Origin: Bacteroidales bacterium
Lineage (GTDB): Bacteria; Bacteroidota; Bacteroidia; Bacteroidales; P3
Direction of reading: 5' to 3'
Assembly (NCBI GenBank): GCA_017480785.1
Contig: JAFURZ010000005.1
Coordinates: forward strand, 16,259 to 80,258
Length of the DNA: 64,000 nucleotides
Shown here: piece by piece, positions 18,049 through 42,308 of the stretch
Position numbering within the stretch: position 1 is the first letter of the stretch
Layout of the letters: the number at the start of each line of letters is the position of its first letter
The notes under the pieces: generated by a model
Told to the model about the DNA's origin: nothing
The model's database searches: none
What the model saw: only the letters and a program-made list of their open reading frames with translations
Made by a program: the position numbers and the translations under genes

Positions 18049-19671
18049 CTACAGCAGGTCGAGCGAGTAGTGCAGACCGACGTTCTGCCGGCGGGCACGG
18101 GCCATCTTGATGATGAGATAGGCGCAGGCGATGAGGTTGCGCAGCTCGCTGAGGGGCTCGGTGAGCACGGAGCGGTTGTAGAGGTCCTCGGTCTCGCGGA
18201 AGATGAGGTTCAGACGGTCGAAGGCGCGCTGCAGGCGCAGGTCGCTGCGCACAATGCCGACATAGTTCCACATGATTTCCTGCAGCTCCTTCTTGGTCTG
18301 CGTGATGAGCACCATCTCCTCGTTGAGCACCATGCCCTCGGCGTTCCAGTCGGGCACTTTTGAGTGGGTAGTGGATAGTGGATAGTGGGTAGCATTTGAC
18401 CCTGTGCTCCCCACTACACACTCCCCACTACACACTTGCGCTATAGCCGACATGGCTGCGTTGTGGGCATAGACCACGGCCTCGAGCAGCGAATTGGAGG
18501 CCAGGCGGTTGCCGCCATGCAGACCCGTGCAGCTGCACTCGCCGGCGGCATAGAGGTTGAGGATGGACGATTGCCCGTTGCGGTCCACCTTGATGCCGCC
18601 GCACTGGTAGTGGGCTGCCGGCCGGATGGGTATCATGTCGCGCGTGATGTCGATGCCGATGGAGAGGCATTTGGCATAGATGGTGGGGAAGCCCTCGATG
18701 AGGTGCTTCTTGCCGATGCCGCGGGCGTCGAGGTAGAGGTAGTCCTTGCCGCTGAGTTTCATCTCGTTGTCGATGGCACGGGCCACAATGTCGCGCGGGG
18801 CGAGACTCAGGCGCTCGTCGTACTTCTGCATGAACTCCTTCCCGTCGCGGTCTTTCAGCACGGCGCCGGCGCCGCGCATGGCCTCGGTGATGAGGAAGGC
18901 GGGCTTCTCGGCGGGGTTGTAGAGCGAGGTGGGGTGGAACTGCATGAACTCCAGGTCGCTCAGCACGCCGCGGGCGCGGTGCACCATGGCCACCCCGTCG
19001 CCGGTCGAGATGACGGGCGTGGTGGTGGTGCTGTACACGTTGCCCATGCCGCCGGTGGCCAGCAGGGTGACGCGGGCCAGGTAGGTGTCGATGCGGTTGG
19101 TGTCACAGTCCAAAGCATAGACGCCGTAGCACTCGATGCCCGGCGTGTGCTTGGTGACGCGCTGGCCCAGATGGTGCTGGGTGATGATGTCGATGGCGAA
19201 CTGGCGTTCCTTGAGCTCGATGTTGGGATGCCGGCGCACGGCCTCGAGCAGGCCGCGCTCTATCTCCTCGCCTGTGTTGTCCTTGTGGTGCAGGATGCGG
19301 AACTCCGAGTGGCCGCCCTCGCGGTGCAGGTCGAAGCGGTCGCCGCCTTTCCCCTCGGCGGGGACGCGGTCGAAGTTGACCCCGTACTGCACCAGCTCGC
19401 GGATACGGTCAGGAGCCTCGCGGATGGTCATCTCCACCACCTCGCGGTCACAGATGCCGTCGCCGGCCACCAGGGTGTCCTGTATGTGCTTGTCGAACGA
19501 GTCGCTGTCGTACATCACCGCAGCGATACCCCCTTGGGCGTAGCGCGTGCTTCCCTCGCTGGCATCGCCTTTGGTCAGGATGCACACCCGGCCGTAGGGA
19601 GCCACCTTCAGGGCGAAACTAAGGCCCGCTATACCCGAGCCAACAACCAAGAAATCAACTTCGTAGCGCAT
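18049..19671 (-). CDS. nadB: L-aspartate oxidase
   Basis: ORF 18049..19758 trimmed to ATG 19671 (MRYEVDFLVVGSGIAGL FAD motif), downstream of TAtaTTTG (19695-19702, minus). Also RYAQGGIAAV. Carries an in-frame heptamer hairpin. Confidence 0.95.
   Translation of the reverse strand: MRYEVDFLVVGSGIAGLSFALKVAPYGRVCILTKGDASEGSTRYAQGGIAAVMYDSDSFDKHIQDTLVAGDGICDREVVEMTIREAPDRIRELVQYGVNFDRVPAEGKGGDRFDLHREGGHSEFRILHHKDNTGEEIERGLLEAVRRHPNIELKERQFAIDIITQHHLGQRVTKHTPGIECYGVYALDCDTNRIDTYLARVTLLATGGMGNVYSTTTTPVISTGDGVAMVHRARGVLSDLEFMQFHPTSLYNPAEKPAFLITEAMRGAGAVLKDRDGKEFMQKYDERLSLAPRDIVARAIDNEMKLSGKDYLYLDARGIGKKHLIEGFPTIYAKCLSIGIDITRDMIPIRPAAHYQCGGIKVDRNGQSSILNLYAAGECSCTGLHGGNRLASNSLLEAVVYAHNAAMSAIAQVCSGECVVGSTGSNATHYPLSTTHSKVPDWNAEGMVLNEEMVLITQTKKELQEIMWNYVGIVRSDLRLQRAFDRLNLIFRETEDLYNRSVLTEPLSELRNLIACAYLIIKMARARRQNVGLHYSLDLL
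18364..18435. repeat. GTGG(G/A)TA x4 array plus CTCCCCACTACACA x2 opposing arm inside nadB
   Basis: Left arm 18364-18393, right arm 18409-18435. Read in frame (minus) as ..VCSGECVVGSTGSNATHYPLSTTHS.. Confidence 0.85.
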
Positions 19672-19787
19672 ATCGTTTCGTTTGTTCCGAGTTGCAAATA
19701 TACACAAAAAATATGAATATACACCGTAAAATATGTATTGGTTGGCCTCATTCGGCATACATATTTTTCAAATATCGAAAAAAAGAT

Positions 19788-19795
19788 GTATTTTT
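19788..19795 (+). promoter_or_regulatory. -7 box upstream of the GLUG-repeat protein gene
   Basis: TAttTTTG lies 34 nt before ATG 19830. No clear -33 element. Confidence 0.45.
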
Positions 19796-19829
19796 GCTGC
19801 ATGGCAAACAATATAATATATATACGTAT

Positions 19830-22800
19830 ATGATTATGAATCAAGCAATTACCCCCCCCCCATGCCGATTTGTCGCCATTGAAATCCTGAAAAGGACCGC
19901 AAAAAGGGTGTGCCTGCTGGCCGCCATGCTTATCGGCGTCACAGGGCTTCGTGCCCAGACCCACATTACCGACGTGTCGGGTTTCGACGCCCTCAACGGC
20001 AGCAGCGCCGCCTTCATCATCGACAACGACATCGACGCCTCCTCCCTCGCCACCATTGCCTCCTTCGGCGGCACCCTCGAGGCCGCCATCGACCCTGAGA
20101 CCCACATGCCCTACCGCCTCTCAGGCCTCTCCCACCCCCTCTTCGAGACCCTCACCGGCACCGTCTGCAACCTGGTGCTCGAGGATGTCGGCATCAGCCA
20201 CACTGGCAACACCGGCGCCATCGCCTGCACGGCCTCCGGTGCGGCCCGCATCTACAATGTGGGCATCCTCGGCGGCTCTGTCGGCGGCACGGGCTACACC
20301 GGCGGCCTCGTCGGCCTGCTCGACGGCACGGCCCGCGTGATTAACTGCTACTCCTTCGCCGACATCGTGGGCGGCACGGAAAAGGCCGGCATCGTGGGCT
20401 ACAACAACTACGCCTCCCTCTACAACGACCTCAAGACGATGGTCATGAACTGCATGTTCTATGGCGACATCGCCGAGGGTGGCACCATTGCACCGGTCTA
20501 CGGCGGACTGGAGATAAGCAACGACTACAACAACTCCAACACCAAGCGCCTCAACAACTATAACTATTTTCTCTACGAAGCCTCCTTCAGTGCAGGCCGC
20601 CACATCACGAATTACAACTGTGCGCTGGCCGCCGAGGAGCGCTTCCTCGTCCGGTTCGAGTTCTACCGCCACCTGCTCAACTCCACGCGCGAGATGGCCG
20701 GCTGGTACGTCTACGGCTCCATCCAGGCCGATGCCCACAGCAAGATGCTCAAGTGGGTGCTCGACCCCGCCGTCGCCCGATACCCCGTGCTGAAGGAGCA
20801 AGGCAAGTACCCCTCGGTGGTCAACTACGACCCCGACTACACCTTCGACCCCGTGACCTCCAGCCGGGTGAGTCGCACCGCCGTCACCGAGCCCTACCGC
20901 GGCCGCCACCTCGGCACCCTCACCGTCAACATCGCCAACGCCAAGAGCCAAGGCAAGCAGGACTGGCCGGCCGGCGCCACCGTCAACACCACCTCGCTCA
21001 CCCTCGCCCGCACAGACATGGACGAGCCAAACTACAATTTCAACTACGACAAGGTGCAGCTGCCCTACTACAACGACGTGGGTACGGGCAACTACACGGG
21101 TAACCGTGTGGTCACGGGATGGATTGTCACCGCCGTCACGGGTGGCACGCAGGGCGAGCGCGTGGCCGCCGACTTCACCACCACCACCAATTATGACGCG
21201 CCCTACTACAACTTCGCCGACCGCGACACCTACGCCAAGGACCTCTACTCCATCAGCGGCCGCATCTTCGCCCAGGGAGCCTACTTCAACGTCCCCACCG
21301 GCGTCACCGCCATCACCATCGAGCCCTACTGGGCCGTGTGCACCTACCTCTCCGACGCATACTACGACAGCTATGGCTACATGGATGGCGGCACCAACGA
21401 CACCTACGGCCTGCGCTATACCAACAACAATAACTACACCATAAACGGCAGCTCCCAGAAGGTGTACACCGACGTGGGCAACGCGGTATCCAATCTGACA
21501 GGCGTCACCTCACCCACCGTCTACGACTATGCCGTGGTACTGGTGGGCAACCACCACAGATGCGGCACCTCGGAGCCCTCGGACGGAAACACTCCCTTCA
21601 CCCTCATGTCCATCGACAACAACCGCGACAACGAGCCCGACTACTCGTTCGTTTTCAAGAGCGGCAAAAACCAGAAATGCTCCCCCATACGCTACGACTT
21701 CATCAACATCCCGGCGGCATCCATGGCCCACAAGATGGCGTCGAGCACCGACCTCGCCATCCCGGGCAACGCATTCTACAAAGAATGGATGGAGGTCACC
21801 ACCACAGCCCTCATCCGTTTCGGACAGCTGGAGTACAGTAACAGTAACACTTCGCTGTCGCCCATGATTCTTATGGGTGGCGTGGTGGAACAAATAGTGT
21901 CAAGCAACGATGGAGATACCAACACCGACAAAAGGCGCTACCTCCTCTTCGGCGACAATGTGTGGTTCAAACGGTTTGCCAACGGCATACACGGCGACAA
22001 GACAGGTTCGACTCCCCACCGCCCCATCTCCGTGACAGGAGGCGAATACCTGCGGTTCTACCTCACCGGCTATTTCCGTCCCGACGCAGCTGCCAGCACC
22101 GACAACGCCGAGTGCTACATCGACGGGGGCCGCTTCGGCGACGTGGCAGGGGCCGGACAGGAGAACATCTCCGGCAACGTAAACTGGTTTGTCAACCATG
22201 CCGACATCGAGAACTTCTATGGCGGCGGCATCAAGTCAAGCAACACCAGCCAGATTGCAGGCAACATCACCACAGACATCAGGAACAGCCGCGTAACCCT
22301 TTTCTGCGGCGGACCCATGTTCGGCGACATGGTGGCCGACAAGACCGTCACCACCACCGCCGACCACTGCACCTTCGGCACCTATTTCGGCGCCGGCTAC
22401 GGCGGCAACTCCATCTACCTCAACCGAGTCCAGAACGAATACCAGCACCTGAACGAAAACTGGAACAACTGGATGGGCAATTCCTACGACAACGCCGGCG
22501 GCGGCAACTACCGCGGCAAATACTCCGGCAACGGCATCGCCATCGGCTACGAGTACGAGTTCTTCGCCGGCTCCAGCGGCAACGTAGCGCGCCTCTACAT
22601 CCACAAAGTCTCCTTCTCGCTGGCGAAGTGCAACGACGTCAACTCCACCCTGACGGGCTGCAAGGTGCTTGGCAACTACTACGGCGGCGGCAGCCTCGGA
22701 AAGGTGGTGGGCACCGCGACCTCGGAGCTGACCAGCGACACCGTGCTGGGCAACGTCTTCGGCGCGGGGTTCTCGGTCTCGTTGCCCGACGTGGAAGTGC

Positions 22801-23225
22801 TCGACAACGGCGGCTTCAGCCCTGCCCCCAACTACAACCAGGCGACCGGCGTCTACGAAGAAGGCGGCTTCCCGAGCACCCGGACATTCAAGTGGACCCA
22901 AGTGAACTCCATCAGCAACGGGACGCAATGCCTTGTGGTGGACGGCGAAAACCGCACCATCAAGACCACCGAGGACCTCGACAACCTAGGCACCGTGCAG
23001 GGCACCGTCAACCTCACCATCGGGGGCAGCAGCGTCATCGGCACCGCGGGCGACGCCGCCACCGGAGGCGTCTACGGCGGCGGCGAGGAGAGCACCGTCC
23101 AGGGCGACACCCATGTGCTGCTGAAAGGGACCACCCACGTGCTGGGCGACGTCTTCGGCGGGGGCAATCGCGGTCCCGTGAACGGAAACACCGAAGTGCG
23201 ACTCTGCGACGAATGCAGCCTATAG
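19830..23225 (+). CDS. Large secreted GLUG-motif / Gly-rich beta-helix repeat protein (putative adhesin)
   Basis: ORF 19692..23225 with start taken at ATG 19830 (MIMNQAITPPPCRF..KRVCLLAAMLIGVTGLRAQ). GLUG-like repeats (YTGGLVGLLDGTARVINCYSFADIVGG, KAGIVGYNN). C-terminal repeats NYYGGGSLGKVVG, VYGGGEESTVQGDT, VFGGGNRGPVNGNT. Confidence 0.7.
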   Translation: MIMNQAITPPPCRFVAIEILKRTAKRVCLLAAMLIGVTGLRAQTHITDVSGFDALNGSSAAFIIDNDIDASSLATIASFGGTLEAAIDPETHMPYRLSGLSHPLFETLTGTVCNLVLEDVGISHTGNTGAIACTASGAARIYNVGILGGSVGGTGYTGGLVGLLDGTARVINCYSFADIVGGTEKAGIVGYNNYASLYNDLKTMVMNCMFYGDIAEGGTIAPVYGGLEISNDYNNSNTKRLNNYNYFLYEASFSAGRHITNYNCALAAEERFLVRFEFYRHLLNSTREMAGWYVYGSIQADAHSKMLKWVLDPAVARYPVLKEQGKYPSVVNYDPDYTFDPVTSSRVSRTAVTEPYRGRHLGTLTVNIANAKSQGKQDWPAGATVNTTSLTLARTDMDEPNYNFNYDKVQLPYYNDVGTGNYTGNRVVTGWIVTAVTGGTQGERVAADFTTTTNYDAPYYNFADRDTYAKDLYSISGRIFAQGAYFNVPTGVTAITIEPYWAVCTYLSDAYYDSYGYMDGGTNDTYGLRYTNNNNYTINGSSQKVYTDVGNAVSNLTGVTSPTVYDYAVVLVGNHHRCGTSEPSDGNTPFTLMSIDNNRDNEPDYSFVFKSGKNQKCSPIRYDFINIPAASMAHKMASSTDLAIPGNAFYKEWMEVTTTALIRFGQLEYSNSNTSLSPMILMGGVVEQIVSSNDGDTNTDKRRYLLFGDNVWFKRFANGIHGDKTGSTPHRPISVTGGEYLRFYLTGYFRPDAAASTDNAECYIDGGRFGDVAGAGQENISGNVNWFVNHADIENFYGGGIKSSNTSQIAGNITTDIRNSRVTLFCGGPMFGDMVADKTVTTTADHCTFGTYFGAGYGGNSIYLNRVQNEYQHLNENWNNWMGNSYDNAGGGNYRGKYSGNGIAIGYEYEFFAGSSGNVARLYIHKVSFSLAKCNDVNSTLTGCKVLGNYYGGGSLGKVVGTATSELTSDTVLGNVFGAGFSVSLPDVEVLDNGGFSPAPNYNQATGVYEEGGFPSTRTFKWTQVNSISNGTQCLVVDGENRTIKTTEDLDNLGTVQGTVNLTIGGSSVIGTAGDAATGGVYGGGEESTVQGDTHVLLKGTTHVLGDVFGGGNRGPVNGNTEVRLCDECSL
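19852..19861 (+). repeat. C10 homopolymer tract between the start codon and signal peptide of the GLUG-repeat gene
   Basis: att acc ccc ccc cca tgc reads ITPPPC. The tract currently keeps the frame open. Confidence 0.9.
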
Positions 23226-29431: not shown

Positions 29432-30174
29432 TCACCCTTTCACCTCGACTTTCTGGATGGGATGGCCGGCCACCTTGACGTAATAGAATCCAGCACCAGG
29501 CATGCGCATCACCACGCGCGGTTCGTCCCCTCCAGTACTCACAATATGCCCCATGGGATCGTAGACCTCGACTGGTAACACATCGGCACCCGTCACGATA
29601 ATTTGCAGCCCGTCGACAGCGACCGACACCTCCTGCACCTCCTCCTTGTCAGCCTTGTGAACACGCCGTCGCACCGCGTCTACAGCGACATTCCCAACAA
29701 TGTCGAAACGGGTCAACACCAGGCCCTCGGGCAGCATGCCTCCCGTGCAAACAATCTCCACACAAATATTCCGTCCACTGAAATGACTTAAATCGACACT
29801 GACATGTTCCTCGGCATGGCACACTGCAAGAGCCGCCACAAGCCATTCCAGCACGCCATCGCTACATCGCACACGCAGGGCATAGTGCAACGGAGAGTTG
29901 ACAGGAAGATTGTTGGAATAGTGAAGACCCAAATGTAGCGACATCTGCGAGCCAGTGGGAATACTGAACCATGGACTAATCAGCCGGTCGCCGTACTCGC
30001 AGAGGGTCAGGGCCGCGCCCCTCGCGACATCACGACTGTCGCCATAGCGCCAGCCACGAGGTGACAACCTGTCGTAACAGTACAATATTTTACCCCCCCC
30101 ACAACCTGCGCGGTTGCCGAAAGCGGGAGAAAAGACAGTAGTACCGCCACAAGATATATTTGCCTCAGGTTCAA
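29432..30174 (-). pseudogene. T9SS cargo protein (choice-of-anchor-J-like domain + C-terminal sorting domain), frameshifted at a G8 tract; phase-variation candidate
   Basis: The main ORF 29432..30199 has no signal peptide. The neighbouring frame (ORF 30007..30246) encodes MNLRQIYLVAVLLSFLPLSATAQ from TTG 30174. The two frames meet at C8 (+ strand, 30093-30100). The body has DRLISPWFSIPTGSQMSLHL and a CTD ending GFYYVKVAGHPIQKVEVKG. Confidence 0.55.
30093..30100 (-). repeat. G8 (C8 on + strand) homopolymer tract at the frameshift site of the T9SS cargo gene
   Basis: The signal-peptide frame and the body frame meet here. G9 (or G6) would fuse them. Confidence 0.85.
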
Positions 30175-30210: not shown

Positions 30211-30279
30211 CAAAAGTACAACATTTTCAACAAATAGGCAAAACAATTGTCTCCATCTGGAAAAAAAGTTGTAATTTTG
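30211..30279. promoter_or_regulatory. Back-to-back promoters (T9SS cargo gene leftward, yigZ-like rightward)
   Basis: Leftward TActTTTG is the complement of 30211-30218; rightward TAatTTTG is at 30272-30279, 5 nt before ATG 30285. Confidence 0.6.
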
Positions 30280-41523: not shown

Positions 41524-42308
41524 TTATTCAATCATTTCAACGGTTCTTCCAGACGAAAAGCACTCAAGTGTATTGGGTTCTCCTGTATTGAAATAACACG
41601 GAGATGCAGAAACCATCATGGTAAAAAAACCTATTTTCTTCACCTCACATCTCGTGATATAAAATTTGTTTCTAATCTTTTTCCATTGAGGATTGTCTAT
41701 ATTATTTGAAAAAGTAAGGATGTGTTCACACATAAGATCTTCTTTACTGTATACTCCTTTTTTTCTCTCTAGAGAGTACCTAGAGGGTCTTGTCATTCGG
41801 AAGAACTTGACGTTACTTCTTGAATGAGGAGGGATTCCAACAAAACGTTCTTCTGTGGTCTGAACAAACGTGCCTGATGTAGAAGTTTCCCCCATGTTTA
41901 CACCATTTGCTACGGTTTGAGTTATTGGTCCAGCGCCTACGGCTCTTGTCACCGCACCGGCATTCACATTCATACTCCTGCTTTGGATATTCGTTGTTGT
42001 GACGACAGCATTATTATATATTTTGATAGCGTTTCCATAATTAGTTCCAAGTTCGTTATGTGAAATAAAAAAGGATTCCCCCAGATCAATATATAACATG
42101 CTGTCCGTCTCATTATAAACAAACAATGAACCATCTACATCATATTCTAACCGAATACCTTCATCTGAAATGGAGACTTCCATTCGAGATTGGTTGTCAG
42201 GTTTACATTCAGAATTAACACAGCGAACAGTGTAGGTTAGTCGGTTTACCGGCACGCATGATGTAAAAAGTGTAATTGCTAGGGTAGCAACAAAAAAGTT
42301 TTTTTCAT
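41524..42308 (-). pseudogene. Hypothetical lipoprotein gene, start codon out of frame at an A7/T6 tract; phase-variation candidate (AT-rich islet)
   Basis: The body ORF 41524..42255 is listed from GTG. Upstream, ATG 42308 reads MKKTFLLLP-stop. One extra A (A8) or T (T7) would give MKK(N/T)FFVATLAITLFTSC VPVNRL..., a canonical lipoprotein signal fused to the body. GC content is far below the flanks. No domain recognised. Confidence 0.5.
42292..42305 (-). repeat. A7-C-T6 tract immediately after the ATG of the lipoprotein gene
   Basis: Minus strand reads atg aaaaaaa c tttttt g. A +1 change in either run restores the lipoprotein signal peptide frame. Confidence 0.85.

Follow-up and report, generated by a model that had tools for sequence, protein, structure and literature searches.

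The pilC genes of Neisseria gonorrhoeae and N. meningitidis carry a poly-G tract in the region coding for the signal peptide. Campylobacter and Helicobacter lack MutS and MutL, and in gut Bacteroidales phase variation has been ascribed almost wholly to recombinase-driven promoter inversions and shufflons. Invertible-promoter phase variation is described for Bacteroides fragilis and B. thetaiotaomicron (PMC13742949), 29 homopolymer-associated genes are reported for Helicobacter canadensis (PMC2823697), and inlA of Listeria monocytogenes contains a 5′ poly-A tract, homopolymeric tracts being 5′-biased in general (Orsi et al. 2010, PMC2831843). Our literature searches found no description of homopolymer-slippage switches in Bacteroidales.

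We analysed a window of 64 kb (the whole stretch of DNA studied here), whose longest G/C homopolymer is a C10 tract at 19852–19861 on the forward strand. As the first-pass annotation had stated, these ten C residues lie between the start codon and the signal peptide of a gene for a 1131-aa protein (CDS 19830–23225, + strand). The 5′ frame reads ATG(19830) ATT ATG(19836) AAT CAA GCA ATT ACC CCC CCC CCA TGC… (translation MIMNQAITPPPCRFVAIEILKRTAKRVCLLAAMLIGVTGLRAQ|T), the tract forming codons 8–11 (ACC CCC CCC CCA, T-P-P-P), and stays open from 19830 through 23225. Just eight G/C runs of at least 6 bases occur in the window, and besides C10 only one reaches 8 (C8, 30093–30100), in agreement with the annotated rarity of long G/C homopolymers. 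Computed frames give ON lengths of C7, C10 and C13 (1130, 1131 and 1132 aa, respectively) and OFF lengths of C8, C9, C11 and C12. With C9 the upstream ATG frame ends after 19 codons and with C11 after 17 codons, in line with the expectation that a change of ±1 would abolish translation of the protein. Contingency loci are recognised by (i) a homopolymer of at least about 7 bases in frame near the 5′ end, (ii) a tract length that toggles between full-length and truncated product and (iii) polymorphism far above background mutation among cells or strains that are identical otherwise. At this locus we find (i) C10 at codons 8–11, (ii) 1131 aa versus 19- or 17-aa peptides and (iii) such polymorphism between sample consensus sequences. 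From the sequence, we consider it probable (roughly 0.8) that C10 is a slipped-strand (simple-sequence-repeat) contingency switch acting on translation; judged by analogy, its mechanism is the classical slipped-strand phase variation known from pathogens.

As in pilC, a G/C homopolymer lies in the coding region of an export signal, slippage by ±1 misframes the whole mature protein, and the host is mismatch-repair proficient. Unlike in pilC, the tract precedes the n-region and encodes Pro3, the protein is unrelated to PilC in sequence and in fold, and the host, a gut commensal of the Bacteroidales, uses TAnnTTTG promoters and leaders devoid of a Shine-Dalgarno sequence. With inlA the locus shares a homopolymer few codons past the start of a surface-protein gene, where a shift yields a very short peptide; the inlA tract, however, is poly-A in a low-GC Firmicute, whereas here it is poly-C in a genome of 57% GC that otherwise strongly avoids such runs. 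The outcome, combinatorial ON/OFF surface expression within a gut Bacteroidales clone, resembles that of the B. fragilis and B. thetaiotaomicron inversions, but slippage requires no recombinase.

We propose that transcription begins a few bases 3′ of the putative promoter box TATTTTTG (19789–19796, + strand), assigned purely by its match to the Bacteroidetes-type −7 consensus (TAnnTTTG), and that translation begins at ATG19830 or ATG19836 within an A+T-rich leader. The ribosome would read eight codons (from ATG19830) or six codons (from ATG19836) through the codon that opens the C run, decode the run as Pro-Pro-Pro and go on through the positively charged n-region and hydrophobic core to the RA|Q cleavage site. 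Slippage during replication would gain or lose a C. With C10 (or C7 or C13) the full pre-protein would be produced and exported; with C9 or C11 the ribosome would halt after the 19 or 17 codons, leaving the 1131-aa protein absent or unexported. The gene would be one of a set that comprises four paralogous lipoproteins, an OmpA-family protein and a small secreted ORF, and probably also a D12 DNA methyltransferase of a prophage and capsule-locus genes, so that a clonal population could hold many surface combinations. We infer the slippage mechanism and its rate, its reversibility, the absence of the protein when OFF and any selective benefit; slippage rates may be modest because MutS is present in the genome.

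Tract lengths were compared between the present assembly and 18 contig segments taken from further assemblies of this clone, all belonging to the same ruminant-gut study (246,586 aligned nt). Each assembly is one consensus sequence per sample, and the differences are those between sample consensus sequences. The source libraries were Illumina NovaSeq, TruSeq PCR-free (PMC8199421), and two runs, SRR12529340 and SRR12529373, correspond to its samples Omasum-2 and Abomasum-2. Samples with this clone also include SAMN15829947, SAMN15829962, SAMN15829972 and SAMN15829987. The alignments contain 0 substitutions and 3 indels, all of ±1 base in G/C runs of at least 8 bases: (i) C10 to C9 at window position 19852, which turns the gene OFF, (ii) C8 to C9 at window position 30093, which turns the gene ON, and (iii) C9 to C8 at C17:166341, a lipoprotein gene on another contig, which turns the gene ON. 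The ENA assembly of sample SAMN15829947 has C9 in place of C10 as its sole difference from the window across 6.3 kb, and on C9 contigs the gene is called from ATG19926 (1099 aa). The 1131-aa product is found on 7 contigs, of which the three displayed all carry C10, and the 1099-aa product on 2 contigs, of which the one displayed carries C9. In SAMN15829972, C9 at 30093 (G9 on the coding strand) is the sole difference across 22.7 kb. At C17:166341 the ON length had been predicted as C8, the variant found, and the gene is called there with 557 aa versus 525. Length changes thus affect 3 of 29 comparisons at G/C runs of at least 8 bases, 26 being unchanged, versus 0 of 216 at control runs (G/C runs of 6–7 plus A/T runs of at least 6; Fisher p = 0.0015); the controls divide into 25 A/T runs of at least 8 and 191 shorter runs. 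Tract length across samples is hence not uniform, C9 in SAMN15829947 standing against C10 in three other assemblies. Exact-pattern scans for this locus with the tract length left variable returned no match in JGI metagenome contigs or GTDB genome contigs.

Two further surface-protein genes of the window had been annotated as out of frame at 5′ homopolymer tracts, and both descriptions hold. The G8 tract at 30093–30100 (− strand), a second candidate switch, comes straight after the signal-peptide codons of a small secreted ORF that runs from TTG 30174 to a stop at 29432; the frame shifts at the tract (G8, OFF) and G9 restores an ORF of 247 aa (ON). This ORF has no Pfam or NCBIfam match, and its relatives cover the C-terminal 60–70 residues only, at the C-termini of large proteins. 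Its resemblance to a T9SS C-terminal domain, seen by eye and in these shared C-terminal matches, was set aside, no HMM backing it. The A7-C-T6 tract at 42292–42305 (− strand) follows ATG 42308 of a lipoprotein gene whose body (41524–42255) is off frame by one base. One additional A or T joins start and body, giving on manual reading MKK(N/T)FFVATLAITLFTSC fused to ORF 41524–42255. Its length is unchanged in the single other assembly compared, and the tract may be a switch, a pseudogene or an error.

In the whole genome, which has a GC content of 57%, G/C runs number 2664 (length 5), 315 (6), 29 (7), 23 (8), 8 (9), 4 (10) and 2 (13). Relative to the expectation from an order-5 Markov model, runs of at least 8 bases are in excess (37 observed versus ~9 expected, range 6–15) and runs of length 7 are in deficit (29 versus ~55). 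The runs of at least 8 bases lie mostly outside intact reading frames, 25 of the 37 outside called genes versus 19% non-coding sequence (p = 1e-10). Enrichment of the long runs together with depletion at length 7 suggests, at the level of sequence statistics, selection for switch-length tracts over drift. An architecture of TAnnTTTG, ATG, 4–7 codons, (T)TA-C(n) and signal peptide or lipobox recurs at the loci labelled C10:18449, C17:166341, C17:17521, C15:28429 and C10:12735, and TAnnTTTG boxes stand at a similar distance in other poly-C genes. Four paralogous lipoprotein genes have this layout, all four of them OFF in this assembly; their hydrophobic core starts directly after the tract, and the ORFs 3′ of the OFF tracts are still open for 530–560 codons. 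A G13 tract lies inside a D12 adenine methyltransferase gene of a prophage. The slipped-strand phase variation proposed in the first-pass annotation is accordingly supported by length differences within one clone, the surplus of long tracts across the genome and the recurrence of one 5′ layout. Tens of G/C runs of 8–13 bases in a small genome, their enrichment in surface-structure, capsule/glycosyltransferase and DNA-methyltransferase genes, and ON/OFF combinations that differ by sample are features shared with the phasomes of Campylobacter jejuni and Helicobacter, from which this genome differs in its phylum and in the presence of MutS.

The C10 tract is missing from ~100 homologues and orthologues in other species, with the exception of L051, a 48%-identical homologue in which ATG…TTA-C8 occurs in an upstream ORF before the normal start MIRKAICF…, the stop of the upstream ORF overlapping the downstream start (ATGA). 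In the sister species G082, the orthologue has the same promoter box 36 nt before its ATG and no poly-C tract. Judged by this distribution, the tract at the 1131-aa gene is therefore apparently young, and it may represent a short-lived mutational hot spot. The ATGAAATTCAAATTATTA-C9 module is retained on the orthologous lipoprotein gene of G082, and that species has a second module, ATGAAAATCAAACTTTTA-C9. The motif ATGAATCAnnnAATTA-C(n) occurs in this genome only at the C10 locus and at C4:174780, and in no other of the 60 genus genomes bar one weak match with 2 mismatches; a looser module, ATGAA-N(6–18)-TTA-C7 or longer, is confined to G000 and G082. This restriction of both motif forms to few loci and genomes rules out a widespread mobile switch cassette.

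Consensus calling from Illumina reads is least reliable at G/C runs of 9–10 bases. The C9/C10, C8/C9 and C9/C8 differences might accordingly be sequencing or assembly noise over one fixed length per locus, an explanation that gains from all three being single-base changes in homopolymers of 8–10 bases, a classic error site, and from each variant being present in one displayed contig only. It is nevertheless quite unlikely: the libraries were PCR-free (PMC8199421), none of the long A/T or shorter control runs differs, C10 recurs in three separate assemblies and the 1099-aa form on two contigs. Noise would also fail to account for long G/C runs being four times as frequent as expected, for their 5′ placement in exported-protein genes and for their retention in G082. 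A real, hypermutable tract need not be an evolved switch either; it could be a recent chance homopolymer in a dispensable, decaying surface-protein gene and have no regulatory role. The lack of the tract in orthologues of other species, G082 included, the body of the 30093 ORF, which has no homologues and may be a remnant, and the OFF state of four out of four lipoprotein paralogues speak for such decay. We rate it as unlikely, since one clone contains both phases, ON and OFF, of genes that are intact and identical in all other respects, reading frames remain open downstream of OFF tracts, lipoprotein orthologues of two species share the module, and the distribution of run lengths suggests selection.

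Alternatively, the true start could lie 3′ of the tract (GTG19908, ATG19926 or some non-canonical codon), which would place the C run in the 5′ leader or in a short upstream ORF. Tract length could then do no more than modulate expression, by way of upstream-ORF coupling, mRNA structure or slippage in transcription, and would exert no on/off control. The upstream ORF of L051 offers a precedent for this arrangement, and gene callers took ATG19926 on the C9 contigs, but we regard it as highly improbable. GTG19908 and ATG19926 are the only in-frame starts 3′ of C10 (19908–19928, + strand); both lie 3′ of the KRTAKR n-region and would yield a truncated signal without its charged residues. Between tract and n-region there is no canonical in-frame start; ATT, ATC and CTG codons do occur there. 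The A+T context is 30–45% at these two starts versus 79–85% at ATG19830/ATG19836, the spacing of 34 nt between the TATTTTTG box and ATG19830 matches that of the G082 orthologue, homologues carry 6–19 residues ahead of the h-region, and independent gene calls begin at ATG19830 (ENA and Logan, 1131 aa, 6–7 contigs) or ATG19836 (NCBI, 1129 aa). On these grounds, we infer that the true start is ATG19830 or ATG19836, the tandem starts ATG ATT ATG (19830–19838, + strand) being the sole plausible ones that cover the whole signal peptide. Further in-frame candidates, ATG19713 and TTG19692/19794, fall before or inside the promoter and within the neighbouring gene that diverges from this one; product look-ups for the ATG19836 and GTG19908 starts returned no record for either. 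In the lipoprotein paralogues, the position of the hydrophobic core directly after the tract makes a downstream start impossible. We rejected an invertible-promoter switch: the sole inverted repeat flanking the promoter is a 17-nt, 82% complementary pair within two coding sequences, which is not credible, and all contigs from other samples are collinear.

That three such tracts, and nothing else in about 250 kb, differ between samples of one clone is evidence, drawn from public data, that switching takes place under natural conditions. A broader reading, which we hold tentatively and at slightly under even odds, is that a poly-G/C phasome (~37 tracts) spans the genome of this rumen Bacteroidales lineage, on a mismatch-repair-proficient background. 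It would comprise translational switches on the lipoprotein family and on β-helix, OmpA-family and T9SS-type exported proteins and capsule-locus genes, with the G13 methyltransferase as a possible phasevarion and with the prevailing ON/OFF combination changing from one gut compartment to another in a single animal. Bacteroidales would then possess, beside invertible promoters, a second general means of phase variation, simple-sequence-repeat switching, overlooked because assemblies and annotators treat the tracts as frameshifts. Should it be general, many surface-protein genes that look frameshifted in Bacteroidales MAGs would be OFF-phase genes, neither pseudogenes nor errors, annotation pipelines would mis-start or lose such genes, and studies of strain variation, phage receptors and host immunity in rumen and gut would have to track tract length in addition to promoter orientation.

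The signal peptide of the 1131-aa protein (P0001) is encoded at 19830–19955 (+ strand; residues 1–42) and consists of a long n-region MIMNQAITPPPCRFVAIEILKRTAKR and the h-region VCLLAAMLIGVTGL, followed by RA|Q, a cleavage site assigned by the A|Q rule. The AlphaFold model (overall pLDDT 83.8, pTM 0.84) contains a helix at residues 15–37, with low pLDDT over residues 1–41. The earlier designation as a GLUG-repeat protein is loosely right: Peptidase_M26_N (PF05342) matches residues 76–148 above its cut-off (29.7 versus 27.7 bits), while the Glug match itself stays below threshold. Assignment to the M26 IgA1-specific metallopeptidases was rejected, as the N-terminal module is common to both but no HEXXH motif is found anywhere in the protein and Pfam gives no Peptidase_M26_C match. 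Foldseek returned weak matches to the N-terminal β-helix domain of streptococcal IgA1 protease and to BACOVA_03286 (N-terminal parts of 7jgj and 6xja; 3n6z) and then to β-helix adhesins and lyases, every fold match lying above E = 0.01. No PDB sequence match, no NCBIfam match and no Pfam or NCBIfam match to a T9SS C-terminal sorting domain was obtained. On the basis of the model, the product is described only as a β-helix, adhesin-like exported protein. Its 90% protein cluster has three members, and the family has multiple copies both in the genus and among rumen Bacteroidales/Prevotella MAGs. The last ~50 residues form an unclassified motif with which many large proteins of the genus also end.

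The C10 homopolymer at 19852–19861 (+ strand) lies inside the open reading frame of a secreted beta-helix protein (19830–23225, + strand) and is the longest G/C homopolymer in the window (60% GC), which contains eight G/C runs of at least 6. The frame reads ATG(19830)-ATT-ATG(19836)-AAT-CAA-GCA-ATT-ACC-CCC-CCC-CCA-TGC and stays open until 23225, giving 1131 aa with the N-terminus MIMNQAITPPPCRFVAIEILKRTAKRVCLLAAMLIGVTGLRAQ followed by T. A Bacteroidetes-type −7 box, TATTTTTG, is located at 19789–19796 (+), 34 nt 5′ of the first ATG. With C9 or C11, the frame from the upstream ATGs terminates after 19 or 17 codons, respectively. The first-pass annotation had placed C10 within the 1131-aa frame before the signal peptide, expected a ±1 change to break this frame and regarded long G/C homopolymers as rare in the window; sequence and frame bear out all of these points. 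The window corresponds to C14:16259–80258 (contig:position) of a 2.25 Mb genome of 19 contigs with 57% GC.

We assessed tract-length variation on assembly consensus sequences by exact-product look-ups. The samples stem from Xie et al. 2021, a study of ruminant guts (NovaSeq, PCR-free libraries; PMC8199421), two of the runs being Omasum-2 and Abomasum-2. The 1131-aa product is found on seven contigs read, with C10 in the 3/3 shown, and a 1099-aa product starting at ATG19926 on two contigs; C9 is present in the one shown, from ENA sample SAMN15829947. This is the sole difference between that contig and the window in 6.3 kb. Tract length, whose uniformity across samples had been named earlier as evidence against slippage, is not uniform: C9 in SAMN15829947 and C10 in three others. 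Using neighbouring genes as anchors, we drew from other assemblies 18 contig segments belonging to the same clone (246,586 aligned bases), which contain no substitutions and three 1-base indels: (i) C10 to C9 at window position 19852, turning the gene OFF; (ii) C8 to C9 at window position 30093, turning the gene ON; and (iii) C9 to C8 at C17:166341, turning the gene ON. At the last site, C8 is the length predicted beforehand to restore the lipoprotein frame, and the gene is then called as 557 aa, compared with 525. Length changes thus amount to 3/29 comparisons for G/C runs of at least 8 and 0/216 for all other homopolymers of at least 6 (p = 0.0015). Slipped-strand phase variation at C10 is supported by these sequence comparisons; the between-sample evidence is unusually clean and is accompanied by a genome-wide set of companion loci.

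Across the genome, G/C run counts (2664, 315, 29, 23, 8, 4 and 2 at lengths 5, 6, 7, 8, 9, 10 and 13) drop about ten-fold per added base through length 7, with no further drop thereafter. An order-5 Markov model yields ~9 runs of at least 8, compared with 37 observed, and ~55 at length 7, compared with 29. According to a rough home-made gene caller, 25/37 long runs lie outside called genes, relative to 19% non-coding DNA, and in many such cases an ORF is cut off from its start codon. In a recurrent layout, TAnnTTTG, ATG, 4–7 codons and (T)TA-C(n) precede, in that order, a signal peptide or lipobox. It is found at four paralogous lipoproteins of ~550 aa, at C10:18449 (C10), C17:166341 (C9), C17:17521 (C8) and C15:28429 (C7), where the tract lies between 'MK..L' codons and the lipobox signal, and at an OmpA family gene (C10:12735, C8, in frame). 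The four paralogues match no Pfam family; all are OFF in this assembly, and sample SAMN15829972 has one of them ON (C8). In the sister species (G082), the orthologous lipoprotein gene retains ATGAAATTCAAATTATTA-C9, and a second module is present in that genome. C9/G9 runs occur in 41/41 genus genomes sampled, some of them, at contig ends, being artefacts. MutS is present in the genome.

Assembly noise is possible behind any single variant, but leaves unexplained why changes are confined to long G/C runs and why C10 is reproducible, as well as the genome-wide tract excess and the conserved module. A hot spot without function may exist at the studied gene, and is hard to dismiss there because the tract is missing from all orthologues of this gene. 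Translation starting downstream of the tract, which would leave the tract at most a tuning role, is unlikely here. The upstream ATGs (19830/19836) are probably used, since (i) the A+T content of the start context is 79–85% there versus 30–45% at the downstream candidates, (ii) the same promoter box lies 36 nt 5′ of the ATG in the G082 orthologue, (iii) homologues likewise have 6–19 residues ahead of the hydrophobic core and (iv) independent gene calls select ATG19830 (ENA and Logan) or ATG19836 (NCBI). The only in-frame canonical starts 3′ of the tract, GTG19908 and ATG19926, are both past the KRTAKR n-region. One point for a downstream start is a similar ATG...TTA-C8 module in another species (L051:1470–1620, CAMHDJ010000056.1): upstream of a 48% identical homologue, ATGAGAAATACACACTCAATCAATCTTTTA-C8 belongs to an upstream ORF, and the TGA of this ORF overlaps the real-start ATG (MIRKAICF...). 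This arrangement hints at tract-length-dependent coupling, so that expression tuning through the leader is, as judged from sequence, a real variant of the theme.

The product is best described as an exported, adhesin-like beta-helix protein, whose family is multi-copy and diverges fast. The AlphaFold model (26 homologues) is confident (pLDDT 83.8, pTM 0.84), with residues 1–41 disordered or helical as expected of a signal peptide. Foldseek weakly matches the N-terminal 275 residues to streptococcal IgA1 protease (beta-helix domain) and to BACOVA_03286, and the remainder, at non-significant scores, to beta-helix adhesins, autotransporter passengers and lyases. The previous 'GLUG-repeat' label holds only in part: in Pfam, the Glug match is sub-threshold and Peptidase_M26_N barely exceeds the cut-off. 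The 1131-aa protein contains no HEXXH motif, and NCBIfam profile and PDB sequence searches gave no match. Relatives are encoded in MAGs of rumen and gut origin that bear the labels Prevotella, Bacteroidaceae or Bacteroidales; the closest-species orthologue is only 64–70% identical, and several genus genomes have tandem paralogues.

The first-pass annotation proposed two companion tracts. G8 at 30093–30100 (− strand), directly after the signal peptide of a small secreted ORF (29432–30174, start TTG 30174, promoter TACTTTTG at 30218–30211, −), splits this ORF as claimed; G9, carried by another sample of the same clone, restores the 247-aa frame. This ORF has no match in an HMM search, and relatives only for its C-terminal 60–70 residues, at C-termini of large proteins. 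A7-C-T6 at 42292–42305 (−), after ATG 42308, is indeed out of frame by one base: one additional A or T fuses a textbook lipoprotein signal (MKKNFFVATLAITLFTSC if A is added) to the 243-aa body ORF 41524–42255. Its length is unchanged in the one other assembly compared.

Neisseria pilC follows the same logic, with a G/C run in the sequence that encodes the signal peptide. The genome-wide picture matches the poly-G phasomes of Campylobacter and Helicobacter (compare PMC2823697). The invertible-promoter paradigm of Bacteroidales (PMC13742949) differs in that the studied promoter lacks credible flanking inverted repeats. A 17-nt inverted repeat (82% complementary, 19573–19589/19906–19922) brackets promoter and tract; both arms are coding, no inverted form of 19573–19922 was seen in other assemblies, and we judged it to be chance. 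The mechanism is classical; in this group, full-text literature searches returned no report of switching by homopolymer slippage, for Bacteroidales or Prevotella. The nearest precedent is a speculative remark on four consecutive C's in B. fragilis (PMC3090145), and general surveys do not mention the phylum.

Further tracts occur elsewhere in the genome. G13 at C16:89894–89906 encodes GGGG (residues 30–33) of a D12-class N6-adenine DNA methyltransferase (PF02086, 29.8 bits), whose gene terminates a prophage-like block of tail genes. The run is in frame both here and in the one other assembly seen, and the methyltransferase is a candidate for phase variation. In the same prophage, a 408-aa reverse-transcriptase-like gene (RVT_1, weak; C16:88324–89550, L160:11854–13080) adjoins tail-fibre-like genes and is possibly a diversity-generating retroelement. 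A conserved leader, '...cataacccgctgattttta-C8/9...gaattcacggcctcggacgat', is present in four copies (C1:171553, C4:256123, C15:46225 and C17:2467, the last preceding a Lipocalin_4 lipoprotein) located 115–170 nt 5′ of small lipoprotein genes; a TAnnTTTG box lies upstream of the tract, which is part of the 5′ leader. In a capsule-type locus, a GT4 glycosyltransferase gene has at its 3′ end ATTATGAATCAgagAATTA-C9 (C4:174778–174802), which shares 16/19 flanking bases with ATTATGAATCAagcAATTA-C10 at window 19833–19861; chance is very unlikely (rough estimate, order 1e-4), and the motif is found in no other genus genome. C8/G8 runs at C8:60085, C17:136395 and C1:152341 lie next to a repeated palindrome (cctctccgattggagagg) that is located just past stop codons and resembles a REP or terminator element. 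An AT-rich repeat of ~140 nt, with no obvious ORF, is present twice; at one and the same position, the copy at C5:21647 has C8 and that at C15:12399 has C10. Finally, G9 at C12:72952–72960, in the middle of a secreted-protein gene (tail beginning '...VAYPNPF'), coincides with a frame change and is a possible mid-gene OFF switch.
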